Positions 1-8,329 of a stretch of 8,329 bases of DNA are shown here, in pieces (position 1 is the first letter of the stretch; each line of letters starts with the position of its first letter). The DNA is from Naegleria gruberi (taxonomy: Eukaryota), in the NCBI GenBank assembly GCA_000004985.1, contig GG739077.1. One strand, 5' to 3'. A model generated the notes under the pieces. That model saw only the letters and a program-made list of their open reading frames with translations, did not search any database and had not been told where the DNA came from. The position numbers were made by a program, and so were the translations under genes.

Positions 1-288
1 TGTAATGGATTTTTTAAAGAAACACCAATTATTATTGTTTTAAATAAGACTGATATATTTAAAAAGAAACTTGAAGTTCATGGTATTGAACAATGTTTTA
101 AAGATTACAATGGTTCACAAGATTATGATGAAAGTGTTCAATTTATTAGAAACAAATTTTTATCTTTAAACAAATTTGATGAACAAAGAATTTGGATACA
201 CGAATGTTGTGCCACTTCAACTGATGATGTTAGAAAAGTTTTTGAACAAATTAAACATCAAGTTGCTCAATGGAAGAGGAATCATTAA
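1..288 (+). CDS. Heterotrimeric G-protein alpha subunit, C-terminal part (5'-partial; stop TAA at 286-288)
   Basis: Frame 1 translates without stops to CNGFFKETPIIIVLNKTDIFKKKLEVHGIEQCFKDYNGSQDYDESVQFIRNKFLSLNKFDEQRIWIHECCATSTDDVRKVFEQIKHQVAQWKRNH*. It has the G4 box 'LNKTD' (NKxD), a G5-like 'CCATST' (canonical TCATDT) and a C-terminal a5-helix-like tail. Spacing and order match the G-alpha consensus (...ILFLNKKDLF...TCATDT...). Codon usage is Dictyostelium-type. Confidence 0.9.
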   Translation, partial: CNGFFKETPIIIVLNKTDIFKKKLEVHGIEQCFKDYNGSQDYDESVQFIRNKFLSLNKFDEQRIWIHECCATSTDDVRKVFEQIKHQVAQWKRNH

Positions 289-298: not shown

Positions 299-647
299 TT
301 TATTATTATTAAGATCAATGTTGAACCTTTTTATTCATGGTTTTAGAATTAAATGATGTGATGAAGAGTGAGGTGTAATAATTGATTTTTGAACAAGACA
401 ATAGTCTGGAAGTGCAAATTTTGTTTTGCTGGAGAAATGGATTGGAAAATGTTTAATTTTCAATGATAAGAAGATTCATTTATCGATATGATTCTTATTG
501 TACTGTACAAATAGACTTGTTTTTTGATTCTATAATTCAATCACAAGTATTGCATTCAATGGTTCCATACAGAAACTCCATAATTGAAACAAAACAAGAA
601 ATAACACGACAAATACTTGGTCCATTATTTGGATTCACAACTCTCTT

Positions 648-684
648 TAAGAATTGTACTTTTACCAGAAGAATTGTACTTTTA
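648..684. repeat. Direct tandem duplication of about 19 bp (aagaattgtacttttac[c/t])
   Basis: Read directly: 'aagaattgtacttttaccag' is followed by 'aagaattgtacttttactttcag'. A third partial copy 'atattgtacc' lies at about 704-713. Confidence 0.6.
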
Positions 685-1243
685 CTTTCAGATTTTCCAG
701 ATATTGTACCGCTGAGATCTCAGCCAAGACCTAAAACAGAAACTCCACCAACTTGAAGAAAAGCCATAGAACCCAACAACTTACCACCAAGCACAGAAGA
801 AGATATTACTCATTTAATAATGCAGATGTGGTGTATCAGGTAACAAAAGAAGTATAAATGCTATTGGCATGACAAGTATTGGCTTTGCTTTGTTGGAGCC
901 AATTAATGTTGGCCCGTGCAACTAGTAGTAGTTCGTACGTTTTTAATTTGCTATTTATGTATTTATAATAAATATTTCACACATACATGCTGTGATAATA
1001 CTTTTCATTTAGTCTAAGAGGAGACTGCTTGGCGGATTTTTAACCTAGCAGCCTTGGTATTTATTGTTAACTAAAACACAATGAATCTCCAGAACACAGT
1101 TTTACACTACAATATTAATACAGATATTCTTTCCCACTCATCCACCATCAACTTCCAGATTCTGCACACCACAAGCAATATTTGTGATGCACACAGCTCC
1201 AAAATTGTTACGATTTAAACCAATTTGCGGATGTCAACAGTAA

Positions 1244-1293
1244 NNNNNNNNNNNNNNNNNNNNNNNNNNNNNNNNNNNNNNNNNNNNNNNNNN
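1244..1293. other. Assembly gap (50 N)
   Basis: Run of exactly 50 n characters, the conventional unknown-length gap placeholder. Confidence 0.95.
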
Positions 1294-1522
1294 TTGGTAT
1301 GTTTTGTAATTTTGAGCGGGAAACTAAATTTCAGTGTCTTGTGAAGTTGTTCTTCCATTAACTAGCCATCGCAAACAAACAAGACTATTTTCAAGCCTGT
1401 TGTGGATTTTCCAACTGTCATTAATCACTTTCCCATCAAAAAAAAATTTTGAACGACTCCCTGCTGTGAGAGTGAACTAAACTACAAAAACTCGCAGTAC
1501 CCACCTCCTTATCTACAACAAC

Positions 1523-1772: not shown

Positions 1773-2490
1773 ATGGGTTTATGTTTTGGTAAAACTGATG
1801 GTTCACAATCATCATCATCAAATAATCAATCTTCCAATCAAGATGGTAAAAATAAGAATAATCAACGTATCAATGATAATGATCCAAATAATGAAGGTGG
1901 TGATGAAATGAATGAAAATGCTGATCCAAATTCAGGAAATTATGATGTAAAATTATTATTATTAGGATCAGGTGAATCAGGTAAATCAACATTTTTCAAA
2001 CAAGTTCGTATTATATCACAAAGACCATTTTTAGAGAATGAACGTCGTCGTGTTAAAAATACAGTTCATTTCAATGTAGTTTCAAGTATGGCAGTAATGT
2101 GTCAAAAATTAAAAGAATTAAACTTGGAATTCTCAAGTGAAGAATTAAGTAAATGTGCAGAACGTGTATTACAATTAAGTAAGAATAGAGCATTCATGAC
2201 ATCAACAACAAGTGTTAAAGGAGGTGATCGTAATTTTTATACTGATGAAATTGCTAATGATATTTATCAATTATGGAAAGATTCAACTATTCAAAAAGTA
2301 TTTCAAAATAATAGAAATGATGTTCATGTTTTTGATGGTGCTGAATATTTCTTTGAACGTTTAGATATAATTAGAAAAAATGATTACATTCCATCTGAGG
2401 AAGATTTATTATATTGTCGTCAAAAAACTATTGGTATTGTTGAAGTTTCATTCGATCATGAATCTTTAAAATTTAGTTTATTTGATGTTG
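1773..2490 (+). CDS. Heterotrimeric G-protein alpha subunit, exon 1 (N-terminal 239 codons + 1 nt; continues beyond an intron into the assembly gap)
   Basis: ATG at 1773. The translation starts MGLCFGK (Gly2 for N-myristoylation, Cys4 for palmitoylation). There is a low-complexity S/N/Q/D-rich insert (residues ~10-57), a P-loop KLLLLGSGESGKST (nt 1965-1991), a helical-domain-length spacer and switch I 'RQKTIGIVE' (canonical RxKTTGIxE). The exon then reads ...LFDV+G, ending at 2490 in phase 1, immediately followed by GTATGT. The ORF-track tail 'MFFLNILIF*' is intron read-through. Confidence 0.9.
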
Positions 2491-2551: not shown

Positions 2552-5500
2552 NNNNNNNNNNNNNNNNNNNNNNNNNNNNNNNNNNNNNNNNNNNNNNNNN
2601 NNNNNNNNNNNNNNNNNNNNNNNNNNNNNNNNNNNNNNNNNNNNNNNNNNNNNNNNNNNNNNNNNNNNNNNNNNNNNNNNNNNNNNNNNNNNNNNNNNNN
2701 NNNNNNNNNNNNNNNNNNNNNNNNNNNNNNNNNNNNNNNNNNNNNNNNNNNNNNNNNNNNNNNNNNNNNNNNNNNNNNNNNNNNNNNNNNNNNNNNNNNN
2801 NNNNNNNNNNNNNNNNNNNNNNNNNNNNNNNNNNNNNNNNNNNNNNNNNNNNNNNNNNNNNNNNNNNNNNNNNNNNNNNNNNNNNNNNNNNNNNNNNNNN
2901 NNNNNNNNNNNNNNNNNNNNNNNNNNNNNNNNNNNNNNNNNNNNNNNNNNNNNNNNNNNNNNNNNNNNNNNNNNNNNNNNNNNNNNNNNNNNNNNNNNNN
3001 NNNNNNNNNNNNNNNNNNNNNNNNNNNNNNNNNNNNNNNNNNNNNNNNNNNNNNNNNNNNNNNNNNNNNNNNNNNNNNNNNNNNNNNNNNNNNNNNNNNN
3101 NNNNNNNNNNNNNNNNNNNNNNNNNNNNNNNNNNNNNNNNNNNNNNNNNNNNNNNNNNNNNNNNNNNNNNNNNNNNNNNNNNNNNNNNNNNNNNNNNNNN
3201 NNNNNNNNNNNNNNNNNNNNNNNNNNNNNNNNNNNNNNNNNNNNNNNNNNNNNNNNNNNNNNNNNNNNNNNNNNNNNNNNNNNNNNNNNNNNNNNNNNNN
3301 NNNNNNNNNNNNNNNNNNNNNNNNNNNNNNNNNNNNNNNNNNNNNNNNNNNNNNNNNNNNNNNNNNNNNNNNNNNNNNNNNNNNNNNNNNNNNNNNNNNN
3401 NNNNNNNNNNNNNNNNNNNNNNNNNNNNNNNNNNNNNNNNNNNNNNNNNNNNNNNNNNNNNNNNNNNNNNNNNNNNNNNNNNNNNNNNNNNNNNNNNNNN
3501 NNNNNNNNNNNNNNNNNNNNNNNNNNNNNNNNNNNNNNNNNNNNNNNNNNNNNNNNNNNNNNNNNNNNNNNNNNNNNNNNNNNNNNNNNNNNNNNNNNNN
3601 NNNNNNNNNNNNNNNNNNNNNNNNNNNNNNNNNNNNNNNNNNNNNNNNNNNNNNNNNNNNNNNNNNNNNNNNNNNNNNNNNNNNNNNNNNNNNNNNNNNN
3701 NNNNNNNNNNNNNNNNNNNNNNNNNNNNNNNNNNNNNNNNNNNNNNNNNNNNNNNNNNNNNNNNNNNNNNNNNNNNNNNNNNNNNNNNNNNNNNNNNNNN
3801 NNNNNNNNNNNNNNNNNNNNNNNNNNNNNNNNNNNNNNNNNNNNNNNNNNNNNNNNNNNNNNNNNNNNNNNNNNNNNNNNNNNNNNNNNNNNNNNNNNNN
3901 NNNNNNNNNNNNNNNNNNNNNNNNNNNNNNNNNNNNNNNNNNNNNNNNNNNNNNNNNNNNNNNNNNNNNNNNNNNNNNNNNNNNNNNNNNNNNNNNNNNN
4001 NNNNNNNNNNNNNNNNNNNNNNNNNNNNNNNNNNNNNNNNNNNNNNNNNNNNNNNNNNNNNNNNNNNNNNNNNNNNNNNNNNNNNNNNNNNNNNNNNNNN
4101 NNNNNNNNNNNNNNNNNNNNNNNNNNNNNNNNNNNNNNNNNNNNNNNNNNNNNNNNNNNNNNNNNNNNNNNNNNNNNNNNNNNNNNNNNNNNNNNNNNNN
4201 NNNNNNNNNNNNNNNNNNNNNNNNNNNNNNNNNNNNNNNNNNNNNNNNNNNNNNNNNNNNNNNNNNNNNNNNNNNNNNNNNNNNNNNNNNNNNNNNNNNN
4301 NNNNNNNNNNNNNNNNNNNNNNNNNNNNNNNNNNNNNNNNNNNNNNNNNNNNNNNNNNNNNNNNNNNNNNNNNNNNNNNNNNNNNNNNNNNNNNNNNNNN
4401 NNNNNNNNNNNNNNNNNNNNNNNNNNNNNNNNNNNNNNNNNNNNNNNNNNNNNNNNNNNNNNNNNNNNNNNNNNNNNNNNNNNNNNNNNNNNNNNNNNNN
4501 NNNNNNNNNNNNNNNNNNNNNNNNNNNNNNNNNNNNNNNNNNNNNNNNNNNNNNNNNNNNNNNNNNNNNNNNNNNNNNNNNNNNNNNNNNNNNNNNNNNN
4601 NNNNNNNNNNNNNNNNNNNNNNNNNNNNNNNNNNNNNNNNNNNNNNNNNNNNNNNNNNNNNNNNNNNNNNNNNNNNNNNNNNNNNNNNNNNNNNNNNNNN
4701 NNNNNNNNNNNNNNNNNNNNNNNNNNNNNNNNNNNNNNNNNNNNNNNNNNNNNNNNNNNNNNNNNNNNNNNNNNNNNNNNNNNNNNNNNNNNNNNNNNNN
4801 NNNNNNNNNNNNNNNNNNNNNNNNNNNNNNNNNNNNNNNNNNNNNNNNNNNNNNNNNNNNNNNNNNNNNNNNNNNNNNNNNNNNNNNNNNNNNNNNNNNN
4901 NNNNNNNNNNNNNNNNNNNNNNNNNNNNNNNNNNNNNNNNNNNNNNNNNNNNNNNNNNNNNNNNNNNNNNNNNNNNNNNNNNNNNNNNNNNNNNNNNNNN
5001 NNNNNNNNNNNNNNNNNNNNNNNNNNNNNNNNNNNNNNNNNNNNNNNNNNNNNNNNNNNNNNNNNNNNNNNNNNNNNNNNNNNNNNNNNNNNNNNNNNNN
5101 NNNNNNNNNNNNNNNNNNNNNNNNNNNNNNNNNNNNNNNNNNNNNNNNNNNNNNNNNNNNNNNNNNNNNNNNNNNNNNNNNNNNNNNNNNNNNNNNNNNN
5201 NNNNNNNNNNNNNNNNNNNNNNNNNNNNNNNNNNNNNNNNNNNNNNNNNNNNNNNNNNNNNNNNNNNNNNNNNNNNNNNNNNNNNNNNNNNNNNNNNNNN
5301 NNNNNNNNNNNNNNNNNNNNNNNNNNNNNNNNNNNNNNNNNNNNNNNNNNNNNNNNNNNNNNNNNNNNNNNNNNNNNNNNNNNNNNNNNNNNNNNNNNNN
5401 NNNNNNNNNNNNNNNNNNNNNNNNNNNNNNNNNNNNNNNNNNNNNNNNNNNNNNNNNNNNNNNNNNNNNNNNNNNNNNNNNNNNNNNNNNNNNNNNNNNN

Positions 5501-7146
5501 NNNNNNNNNNNNNNNNNNNNNNNNNNNNNNNNNNNNNNNNNNNNNNNNNNNNNNNNNNNNNNNNNNNNNNNNNNNNNNNNNNNNNNNNNNNNNNNNNNNN
5601 NNNNNNNNNNNNNNNNNNNNNNNNNNNNNNNNNNNNNNNNNNNNNNNNNNNNNNNNNNNNNNNNNNNNNNNNNNNNNNNNNNNNNNNNNNNNNNNNNNNN
5701 NNNNNNNNNNNNNNNNNNNNNNNNNNNNNNNNNNNNNNNNNNNNNNNNNNNNNNNNNNNNNNNNNNNNNNNNNNNNNNNNNNNNNNNNNNNNNNNNNNNN
5801 NNNNNNNNNNNNNNNNNNNNNNNNNNNNNNNNNNNNNNNNNNNNNNNNNNNNNNNNNNNNNNNNNNNNNNNNNNNNNNNNNNNNNNNNNNNNNNNNNNNN
5901 NNNNNNNNNNNNNNNNNNNNNNNNNNNNNNNNNNNNNNNNNNNNNNNNNNNNNNNNNNNNNNNNNNNNNNNNNNNNNNNNNNNNNNNNNNNNNNNNNNNN
6001 NNNNNNNNNNNNNNNNNNNNNNNNNNNNNNNNNNNNNNNNNNNNNNNNNNNNNNNNNNNNNNNNNNNNNNNNNNNNNNNNNNNNNNNNNNNNNNNNNNNN
6101 NNNNNNNNNNNNNNNNNNNNNNNNNNNNNNNNNNNNNNNNNNNNNNNNNNNNNNNNNNNNNNNNNNNNNNNNNNNNNNNNNNNNNNNNNNNNNNNNNNNN
6201 NNNNNNNNNNNNNNNNNNNNNNNNNNNNNNNNNNNNNNNNNNNNNNNNNNNNNNNNNNNNNNNNNNNNNNNNNNNNNNNNNNNNNNNNNNNNNNNNNNNN
6301 NNNNNNNNNNNNNNNNNNNNNNNNNNNNNNNNNNNNNNNNNNNNNNNNNNNNNNNNNNNNNNNNNNNNNNNNNNNNNNNNNNNNNNNNNNNNNNNNNNNN
6401 NNNNNNNNNNNNNNNNNNNNNNNNNNNNNNNNNNNNNNNNNNNNNNNNNNNNNNNNNNNNNNNNNNNNNNNNNNNNNNNNNNNNNNNNNNNNNNNNNNNN
6501 NNNNNNNNNNNNNNNNNNNNNNNNNNNNNNNNNNNNNNNNNNNNNNNNNNNNNNNNNNNNNNNNNNNNNNNNNNNNNNNNNNNNNNNNNNNNNNNNNNNN
6601 NNNNNNNNNNNNNNNNNNNNNNNNNNNNNNNNNNNNNNNNNNNNNNNNNNNNNNNNNNNNNNNNNNNNNNNNNNNNNNNNNNNNNNNNNNNNNNNNNNNN
6701 NNNNNNNNNNNNNNNNNNNNNNNNNNNNNNNNNNNNNNNNNNNNNNNNNNNNNNNNNNNNNNNNNNNNNNNNNNNNNNNNNNNNNNNNNNNNNNNNNNNN
6801 NNNNNNNNNNNNNNNNNNNNNNNNNNNNNNNNNNNNNNNNNNNNNNNNNNNNNNNNNNNNNNNNNNNNNNNNNNNNNNNNNNNNNNNNNNNNNNNNNNNN
6901 NNNNNNNNNNNNNNNNNNNNNNNNNNNNNNNNNNNNNNNNNNNNNNNNNNNNNNNNNNNNNNNNNNNNNNNNNNNNNNNNNNNNNNNNNNNNNNNNNNNN
7001 NNNNNNNNNNNNNNNNNNNNNNNNNNNNNNNNNNNNNNNNNNNNNNNNNNNNNNNNNNNNNNNNNNNNNNNNNNNNNNNNNNNNNNNNNNNNNNNNNNNN
7101 NNNNNNNNNNNNNNNNNNNNNNNNNNNNNNNNNNNNNNNNNNNNNN
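2552..7146. other. Assembly gap (4595 N)
   Basis: Uninterrupted n run. The two giant minus-strand 'X' ORFs in the track (2541..7172, 2548..7239) are artefacts of translating N and use non-ATG (TTG) starts. Confidence 0.97.
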
Positions 7147-7245
7147 TCCAAATATTTGTACAAGTAAATCAAATGGATTTGTTATTACAGTTGTATTATT
7201 AAATATATTATGTCTTTTAAAATCTTCAAATGTCCACAATAGTCT
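7147..7245 (-). CDS. Putative downstream exon of the minus-strand gene (33 codons, RLLWTFEDFKRHNIFNNTTVITNPFDLLVQIFG...), open in frame to the gap edge
   Basis: If the GTAATT donor at 7320-7315 and the AG acceptor at 7247-7246 are used (75-nt, ~95% AT intron, phase 0), the frame continues without a stop for 33 codons to the N boundary. Composition is ~75% AT (coding-like), versus ~95% in the proposed intron. Confidence 0.5.
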
Positions 7246-7320
7246 CTTTTTAAAATTAATTAAATAGTAAAATTATAAAAATTATTAAAATAAATATTAA
7301 AAATTATAAAAATAAATTAC
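7246..7320 (-). other. Putative 75-nt intron of the minus-strand gene
   Basis: Minus-strand donor GTAATT after ...CAATTGTTAAGG (Q L L R), acceptor TTTTAAAAAG|AGA. Length and AT content are typical of Dictyostelium introns. Alternative: no splicing, with the stop at 7297-7299 (…RVIYFYNF*). Confidence 0.5.
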
Positions 7321-8329
7321 CCTTAACAATTGTGTCATTTCTTTTGATGTATCAACACAATAATGTGTATCACCATATTTTTCTTTAATAATTAAAATAC
7401 TTTCTATTAAGGTTAATATAATATTACTTTCAAACATTATTTTACAAATATTAACATGTTCAATTGCATTTTCTAAAATTAAATTCATAATTGAACATGC
7501 TCCAAATATTAAATTTAAAAAATTCTTTGAATAATTAATTTCTTCTTTTGAATTATTTAAATAATTTGAATTTTTAAAAAATTGTTTTAAAATAGTTTTA
7601 AATCTTCTCTTTCCTAAAACAATTACAATCATTGATAATCCTTGTATTGATCTATGTATTAACATTTCTGAAAATATTTCATTTTCATCTGGATATTGCA
7701 TTGCTATTTTAACCATTTCAACACTTTCTCTTACAACTCTAATATCTTCATCTGACAAATTCATAAATATTATATCTAATACTCTTGTTTCTCTTATTTG
7801 TTCAATTTTAATAGATTTGGATATTTCTTTTATCATTGAATATATTAATAATATTGATTGTGTTGATAATTCAATTGAATTTGCATTGTCATTTGTATTT
7901 GTATTATTTGTATTATTTGTATTTGTATTATTATTATTGTTCATATTGTTCATATTGTTCATATTATTTGTATTTGAAGGATCAAATGATTTTCTAAATT
8001 CTTCAGCTGATGCTAATTGATTTCTAGCAGTTTCAACAACATTAAGGAATGTAAATTTTGTGAATGGAAGTGATTGTTGTTTTGGAGTGGCTTCATTTTT
8101 AGGTGTTGTTAAACCTGGTTGAAATGAAATTGAAGAGGAGGGTGATTGAATTACATTTTTAGAAGTTGCAGCAGTTGAAGTAGTAGTGGTATTAGTAATG
8201 TGTGCAACATTTGGTGTTCTTGGAGACATTAAAAAATTACCAAATACTCTAGGTGAATTAAATATTGAACGTGGTGATGCAAAGGCATTCATTTCTTGTT
8301 GTTGAGTTTGTTGTTGCTGTTGTGAATTT
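7297..8329 (-). CDS. Uncharacterised N/T/M/Q-rich low-complexity protein, 5'-partial (frame open to the window edge), contiguous ORF; 3' end is either the stop at 7297-7299 or a splice at 7321
   Basis: The 331-aa ORF in the track starts at ATG 8292-8290, but the same frame stays open upstream to 8329 (…NSQQQQQTQQQE-MNAFASPRS…), so the true start lies outside the window. Dictyostelium-type codon usage. It carries an S/T/P-rich N-terminal part, a NNMNNMNNMNNNNNTNTNNTNNTNTNDN tract, then a hydrophobic/helical-looking C-terminal part (…EIFSEMLIHRSIQGLSMIVIVLGKRRFKTILKQFF…). No family recognised. Confidence 0.8.
   Translation of the reverse strand, partial: NSQQQQQTQQQEMNAFASPRSIFNSPRVFGNFLMSPRTPNVAHITNTTTTSTAATSKNVIQSPSSSISFQPGLTTPKNEATPKQQSLPFTKFTFLNVVETARNQLASAEEFRKSFDPSNTNNMNNMNNMNNNNNTNTNNTNNTNTNDNANSIELSTQSILLIYSMIKEISKSIKIEQIRETRVLDIIFMNLSDEDIRVVRESVEMVKIAMQYPDENEIFSEMLIHRSIQGLSMIVIVLGKRRFKTILKQFFKNSNYLNNSKEEINYSKNFLNLIFGACSIMNLILENAIEHVNICKIMFESNIILTLIESILIIKEKYGDTHYCVDTSKEMTQLLRVIYFYNF
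7890..7966 (-). repeat. Coding microsatellite: (tgtatt[a]tt)n followed by a 9-bp x3 repeat tgttcatat (7938..7964), encoding poly-N/T and NNM x3
   Basis: Read directly. The translation on minus is NNMNNMNNMNNNNNTNTNNTNNTNTNDN. Confidence 0.65.
8296..8322 (-). repeat. (TTG)n / CAA-CAG codon repeat encoding poly-Q at the upstream end of the minus-strand gene
   Basis: ttgttgttgagtttgttgttgctgttg on plus = QQQQQTQQQ on minus, in frame with the ORF and running off the window. Confidence 0.6.

Follow-up and report, generated by a model that had tools for sequence, protein, structure and literature searches.

The closest described counterparts of the gene analysed here come from two other species of Naegleria. 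The orthologue in N. lovaniensis, C9374_001725 (XP_044551385.1), is a protein of 1149 aa, and that in N. fowleri, FDP41_003895 (XP_044561955.1), is a protein of 1245 aa. Intron positions were obtained by mapping each protein onto its own genomic locus (L002 and L003, respectively). In both species, the gene has a single intron, in phase 0, placed directly after the codon of a homologous arginine and followed by the last exon. The intron is the sole one of a gene of ~3.5 kb and lies ~230 nt from the stop codon. Introns in intron-poor genomes are usually kept near the 5' end of genes, so the 3' position of this conserved intron is somewhat unusual. In N. lovaniensis, the intron (L002, 9223..9320) is mostly made up of a 14-nt unit, TTCTCGTTTACAAA, present in five tandem copies.

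The N. lovaniensis genome was annotated by BRAKER1 with RNA-seq data (PMC6125883), and the paper on N. fowleri gives an assessment of "BRAKER1 predicted proteins" (PMC6831594). The median intron of N. lovaniensis is 80 bp and 47% of its genes are interrupted (PMC6125883). N. gruberi has been reported to have 1.7 exons per gene and a mean intron length of 203 bp (PMC8296547). A splice-site consensus for N. gruberi was not found in the literature searched outside the genome paper.

The query for relatives of the gene was P0001, a "predicted protein" of N. gruberi with 488 aa (NCBI/UniRef). An exhaustive HMMER search turned up three close relatives and one distant relative, which were identified by cluster look-up. 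In addition to the two Naegleria orthologues, the close relatives include P0004, a gene call of 474 aa on a 3.6-kb JGI metagenome contig (3300002220, locus L001). The distant relative is Willaertia magna ABK040_007322 (505 aa), which has no intron in its gene; the intron position is thus not universal. Metagenomes were scanned twice, with a single protein and with alignment A2 as queries, and neither scan recovered further relatives.

The window, by which the whole analysed stretch of 8,329 nt is meant, carries a gene of this group on its minus strand. Judged from the sequence, positions 7246-7320 (minus strand) are very probably an ordinary U2-type GT-AG intron, followed by a last exon of which 33 of ~70-80 codons are visible. 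It is an unannotated instance of the intron already annotated in the sister species.

Structure of the Minus-Strand Gene

The features of the stretch are as follows.

7321..8329, minus strand: upstream exon of the DUF5578 / armadillo-like helical protein gene; ORF open to the window edge, ending ...KEMTQLLR
7315..7320, minus strand: putative 5' splice site in phase 0, GTAATT, immediately following the AGG codon for Arg
7246..7320, minus strand: predicted spliceosomal-type GT-AG intron of 75 nt, 96% A+T, from the sequence and from orthologue introns at the homologous position
7297..7299, minus strand: in-frame TAA within the predicted intron, with the read-through tail VIYFYNF; ends intron-blind gene models
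7264..7269, minus strand: candidate branch-site region TACTAT, with the intron's only C; a YTNAY match, weak evidence
7246..7247, minus strand: putative 3' splice site, at the first AG that follows the donor in the sequence
7147..7245, minus strand: visible first 33 codons of the predicted last exon, RLLWTFEDFKRHNIFNNTTVITNPFDLLVQIFG; stop-free, coding-like and extending the orthologue profile alignment
2552..7146, no strand: N gap of 4595 nt, which cuts off the last exon; a convergent G-alpha gene lies on its other side

On the minus strand, the upstream exon ends at 7321 with ...GAA ATG ACA CAA TTG TTA AGG and is followed by GTAATT, with its G at 7320. The ORF at 7297..8292 (minus strand) closes with the TAA at 7299-7297. 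Upstream, its frame continues without a stop as far as the window edge (8329), and the length of "331 aa" counts from the first ATG only. With the frame open to 8329 and the gap starting at 7146, the gene is cut at both ends. The interval 7320..7246 has a length of 75 nt (a multiple of three) and an A+T content of 96.0%, and only three of its bases are G or C: the G of the donor, that of the acceptor and the C at 7267. Both GT...AG ends are present, with GTAATT at 7320-7315 and AG at 7247-7246; the last bases before the AG are A-rich (...AAAAAG). The YTNAY match puts a candidate branch A at 7268, a position 22 nt upstream of the 3' splice site. The 75 nt contain nine such matches, several of them 10-30 nt from the AG, as expected by chance at 96% A+T. 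An intron of 75 nt is typical for the genus.

Exactly at the acceptor AG, the A+T content drops from 96% to 78%. The 33 codons that follow (7245..7147) have an A+T content of 77.8%, compared with 76.2% in the upstream exon, and end exactly at the N run (2552-7146). The first-pass annotation had proposed the same stop, the donor after AGG, the 75-nt length, the acceptor and phase 0, and had noted 33 stop-free codons running exactly to the N boundary; every one of these coordinates checks out, the N run extending from 7146 down. The composition contrast that it gave as ~75% against ~95% AT agrees with the values measured here for exon and intron.

Splicing would join ...KEMTQLLR (exon end at 7321) to RLLWTFEDF... 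(exon start at 7245), and the junction would read CAATTGTTAAGG followed by AGACTATTGTGG. The apparent stop at 7297-7299 would then arise from reading through the intron. Removal of the 75 nt gives one continuous frame, the product of which is collinear with the homologues. The splicing of this intron in N. gruberi, its exact splice sites and the content of the gap are inferred.

Coding Signal of the 33 Codons

It had been suggested that an open frame of 33 codons is unlikely by chance in DNA so rich in A+T. Mononucleotide shuffles of the 99 nt are open in that frame in 3.1% of cases and in any frame in 8.8%, and with intron or intergenic composition 4-7% are open by chance. The stop-free run by itself is thus modest evidence (p~0.03-0.07). 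The open frame alone being weak (p~0.03), the comparative evidence carries the case. Codon usage was scored with codon frequencies learned from the window's own exons. The proposed frame scored +14.7 nats, compared with -17.6 and -23.0 for the other two frames. The G+C content at the three codon positions of the 33 codons is 0.33/0.27/0.06, compared with 0.30/0.32/0.10 in the window's known exons (upstream exon). Codon usage and third-position G+C are coding-like in the proposed frame only.

Comparison with the Orthologues

The upstream exon aligns at 45-50% identity with the N. lovaniensis, N. fowleri and metagenome relatives up to an invariant Arg. Comparison with orthologues had been put forward as a check on the proposed intron, and it bears the proposal out. 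The N. lovaniensis protein runs 75 residues past the homologous Arg (...MTMLFR-NLILRFEELNMPDADNSPQNILQQVLG...) and the N. fowleri protein 79 residues (...MTMFFR-NLVIRFEEWNMSLSFIHPRNILQQILG...), and in both a phase-0 GT-AG intron stands directly after the Arg codon. The intron regions of the four loci compare as follows.

Window: exon end ...QLLR (AGG); predicted intron of 75 nt, GTAATT...AAAAAG; next exon RLLWTFEDF..., at least 33 codons
N. lovaniensis (L002): exon end ...MLFR (CGA); annotated intron of 98 nt, 9223-9320, GTAAGT...GAAG; next exon NLILRFEEL..., 75 codons
N. fowleri (L003): exon end ...MFFR (AGA); annotated intron of 115 nt, 9499-9613, GTAAGT...TTCAG; next exon NLVIRFEEW..., 79 codons
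Metagenome contig (L001): exon end ...NLFR (AGG; ...ANLFR); putative unannotated intron of 42 nt, GTAAGT...TTTCAG; next exon TLLLSEYNN...LFIQDAIQRSSFDMVRKSQWN and stop, 71 codons

The same codon boundary is common to N. lovaniensis, N. fowleri and the metagenome contig. Like the window's predicted intron, those of the two Naegleria species stand in phase 0 after the invariant Arg of ...EMT.(L/F)(L/F)R and have GT...AG ends, and the next exon starts in each case with hydrophobic-L-x-x-x-F-E-(D/E). The introns differ in length (75 nt in the window, 98 in N. lovaniensis and 115 in N. fowleri) and in A+T content (96% in the window, 66-69% in N. lovaniensis and in N. fowleri); the window's donor is GTAATT, whereas N. 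lovaniensis, N. fowleri and L001 have GTAAGT. The L001 intron is much shorter and less A+T-rich than that of the window.

The metagenome gene call shows the same kind of truncation. The P0004 model ends ...LFRVSE, which is a read-through into the GTAAGT intron at the homologous position. Splicing out the 42 nt of L001 restores a last exon of 71 codons with an LFIQDAIQR motif, the counterpart of the motif seen at the C-terminus of the Naegleria proteins (FYLFLQDAIQR..FEQVRQ). The contig comes from a different organism, with an identity of ~47-49%. The public N. gruberi model (...RVIY) and the metagenome call (...FRVSE) would thus share one read-through error.

The similarity of the visible 33 codons to the orthologue tails was examined by a collinear extension test, in which a profile made from the three relatives was scored against versions of the window protein. 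The spliced protein scored 243.5 bits, compared with 229.8 bits when truncated at the Arg and 231.0 bits with the tail VIYFYNF. Adding the 33-aa peptide therefore extends the collinear alignment by +13.7 bits over truncation at the Arg. When exon 2 was shuffled (n=1000), the mean score was 233.4 bits (sd 2.0, maximum 242.9), and 0/1000 shuffles reached 243.5 bits. The orthologue stretches aligned to exon 2 are NLILRFEEL...SPQNILQQVLG and NLVIRFEEW...HPRNILQQILG, the N. lovaniensis peptide reading NLILRFEEL...FYLFLQDAIQRSCFEQVRQ... in its last exon. Two blocks match, RLLWTFEDF with NL(I/V)(L/I)RFEE(L/W) and NPFDLLVQIFG with (S/H)P(Q/R)NILQQ(V/I)LG, and the window has an insertion of 4-6 residues between them. 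With these ~4-6 extra mid residues, exon 2 of the window is weakly similar to the tails in N. lovaniensis and in N. fowleri.

Without an intron, the gene would end at the TAA at 7297-7299 (...RVIYFYNF) and the 33 codons would be a chance frame in 3' UTR or intergenic DNA. Such an end is consistent with the public model, which stops at ...RVIY, and with the occurrence of such an open frame in 3-7% of random sequences of like composition. The 33-aa peptide compared alone with the orthologue tails is also not significantly similar (Smith-Waterman z 1.2-1.5; 10-14% of shuffles as good). However, placed in its collinear context the same peptide gains bits that no shuffle equalled, and this very codon boundary is interrupted by an intron in three related loci. 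The step in A+T content falls exactly at the AG, the coding signal is confined to the proposed frame, and a protein ending at the Arg would be cut within a predicted helix. An uninterrupted gene is therefore very unlikely.

The orthologues also support the view that the gene is larger than its apparent ORF with its 3' part hidden in the gap, as had been proposed, but the part concerned is small: the last exon would have only ~70-80 codons, of which ~40-50 are hidden. Orthologue last exons (71-79 codons) end ...LF(L/I)QDAIQR..F(E/D)(Q/M)VR(Q/K)... and then stop. By analogy, the remaining ~40-50 codons and the real stop would lie in the first ~150 nt of the gap (roughly 7000-7146, minus strand), and these codons probably carry the ...LF(L/I)QDAIQR... 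motif.

Choice of Splice Sites

An intron with other splice sites was also considered, for example one using the donor GTTAAG at 7327 and the acceptor AG at 7245-7244 (84 nt), which would give ...MTQL joined to LLWTFEDF.... Enumeration of all GT/AG pairs showed that seven keep the frame open, and the relatives have GTAAGT where the window has GTAATT, both of which leave room for such a choice. Yet 7320/7246 is the only pair that retains both the invariant Arg (R186 of alignments A1 and A2) and the codon boundary of the relatives. The pair 7327/7244 would remove this Arg and two neighbours (LRR), and the remaining pairs delete conserved residues, some of them 5-20 residues of the IKEKYG...EMT block. 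When the donor at 7320 is paired with the next AG (7245-7244), the frame shifts into stops. Different splice sites are thus highly improbable, and the pair 7320/7246 is preferred on the sequence.

Protein Family and Predicted Structure

The gene belongs to the DUF5578 (armadillo-like helical) family, and the part that matches the family lies upstream of the window. P0001 matches Pfam DUF5578 (PF17741) with 70.8 bits (cut-off 25.7) over residues 7-118, and the orthologues match it with 108-111 bits. E-values for P0001, the orthologues and the Willaertia homologue range from 1.7e-19 to 7.9e-32. The in-window protein, including the last exon, has no match to DUF5578 or to any other Pfam family.

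An AlphaFold2 model of N. lovaniensis residues 575-1149 (the C-terminal half), computed from a 5-sequence alignment, is all-helical with a mean pLDDT of 61.6 (moderate confidence). The exon junction (model residues 500/501) falls within helix 489-509 at a pLDDT of ~73-77, so termination at the Arg would leave this helix incomplete. From residue ~511 on, the model is of low confidence. With Foldseek, the top matches were mostly ARM-repeat proteins such as importin-alpha and beta-catenin, all of low strength (E >= 1.3e-3, TM ~0.3). By sequence, chain 9y6s_9T "ARM1" is the one relative with a solved structure, also a weak match. DUF5578 may be linked to axonemal ARMH1. Searches for a tie to a solved structure or to ARMH1 brought up only the weak 9y6s_9T "ARM1" match and generic ARM-repeat folds.

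Identity of the Locus and the Public Gene Model

A protein search with the spliced translation gave one close database match, P0001, at 97% identity. The match begins at P0001 residue ~154 and covers the whole query except the 33 exon-2 residues, and the exon-2 peptide is contained in no database protein found by this search. The 97% identity extends over the whole of the in-window exon, so P0001 represents the window's gene, in this species or in a strain or allele very close to it. It differs in that it stops in the predicted intron and is without the last exon; its C-terminus, ...KEMTQLLRVIY, lies three codons into the proposed intron. P0001 is also short at the 5' end, starting at the equivalent of residue ~646 of the N. 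lovaniensis protein and ~734 of the N. fowleri protein. It is without the N-terminal ~650-730 residues of the orthologues, a long low-complexity region, and without DUF5578 profile positions 1-78.

Few substitutions separate the window from P0001, and an Asn-rich repeat varies in length between them, a pattern that alleles would be expected to show. Because the differences are few, the window belongs to N. gruberi or a very close strain, and it is possibly an alternative-haplotype scaffold of N. gruberi. A degenerate second copy or misassembled haplotig, with a downstream exon that is homologous yet outside any expressed gene, would suit a small, gap-rich window (50 and 4595 N) with two G-alpha gene pieces in odd order and a 3% protein difference plus repeat-length changes from the public protein, but the ~1000-nt exon and the 99 nt visible of the following exon are read in an intact frame, the window's gene has no frameshifts and, outside the intron, no stops, and the differences from P0001 are few and allele-like, all of which makes it exceedingly improbable.

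Other Features of the Window

The window also carries two pieces of G-alpha genes. Plus-strand positions 1..288 code for the C-terminus of a G-alpha (Pfam G-alpha profile 245-332 of 333), which closes with ...QWKRNH and stop. Positions 1773..2490 (plus strand) encode the N-terminal exon of a G-alpha (profile 12-191), which ends FDV-G and is followed by GTATGT. The DVGGQR motif of G-alpha proteins is universal, and an exon ending in FDV-G must therefore continue this motif past the GTATGT intron. That intron starts at 2491, has ~97% A+T over 2491-2551 and runs into the gap. With an intron of ~97% A+T in the same window, extremely A+T-rich introns of the GTA type are normal in this genome. The lower part of the gap (2552..7146) should hold the rest of this convergent G-alpha gene. 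The C-terminal piece lies upstream of the N-terminal piece in the same orientation, an odd order that suggests tandem paralogues or a scaffolding artefact.

The downstream gene order differs: the gene is followed in N. lovaniensis and in N. fowleri by an ORF on its own strand (1280-1477 aa, no Pfam hits), whereas the downstream neighbour in the window is the convergent G-alpha gene. Positions 450..1500 have a G+C content of 30-36%, higher than the rest of the window, and contain a 50-N gap (1244-1293). This region has no ORF of more than ~100 codons on either strand and may represent intergenic DNA, a repeat or an insert of foreign origin. An Rfam scan of the whole window gave no match.

Conclusions

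Why the intron has been kept is a separate matter. It is the sole intron of the gene, its length is a multiple of three, it has an in-frame stop, it lies ~230 nt from the true stop, and the same boundary occurs in four Naegleria-type loci. One reading of these features would be that it is no passive relic but is kept because regulated retention gives a C-terminally truncated isoform (...RVIYFYNF) or tunes expression. We regard this as quite unlikely.

With the intron placed at 7246-7320, any ORF call made at this locus without regard to introns, like the public model of N. gruberi, would be truncated in the middle of a predicted helix and would be without the conserved C-terminus of ~70-80 residues. 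The case illustrates that an intron whose length is divisible by three and which holds an in-frame stop can pass convincingly for the end of a gene, as it does both in N. gruberi and in the metagenome call. Overall, the value of the finding is that of an annotation correction, and the understanding of splicing and of the protein family is unchanged by it.
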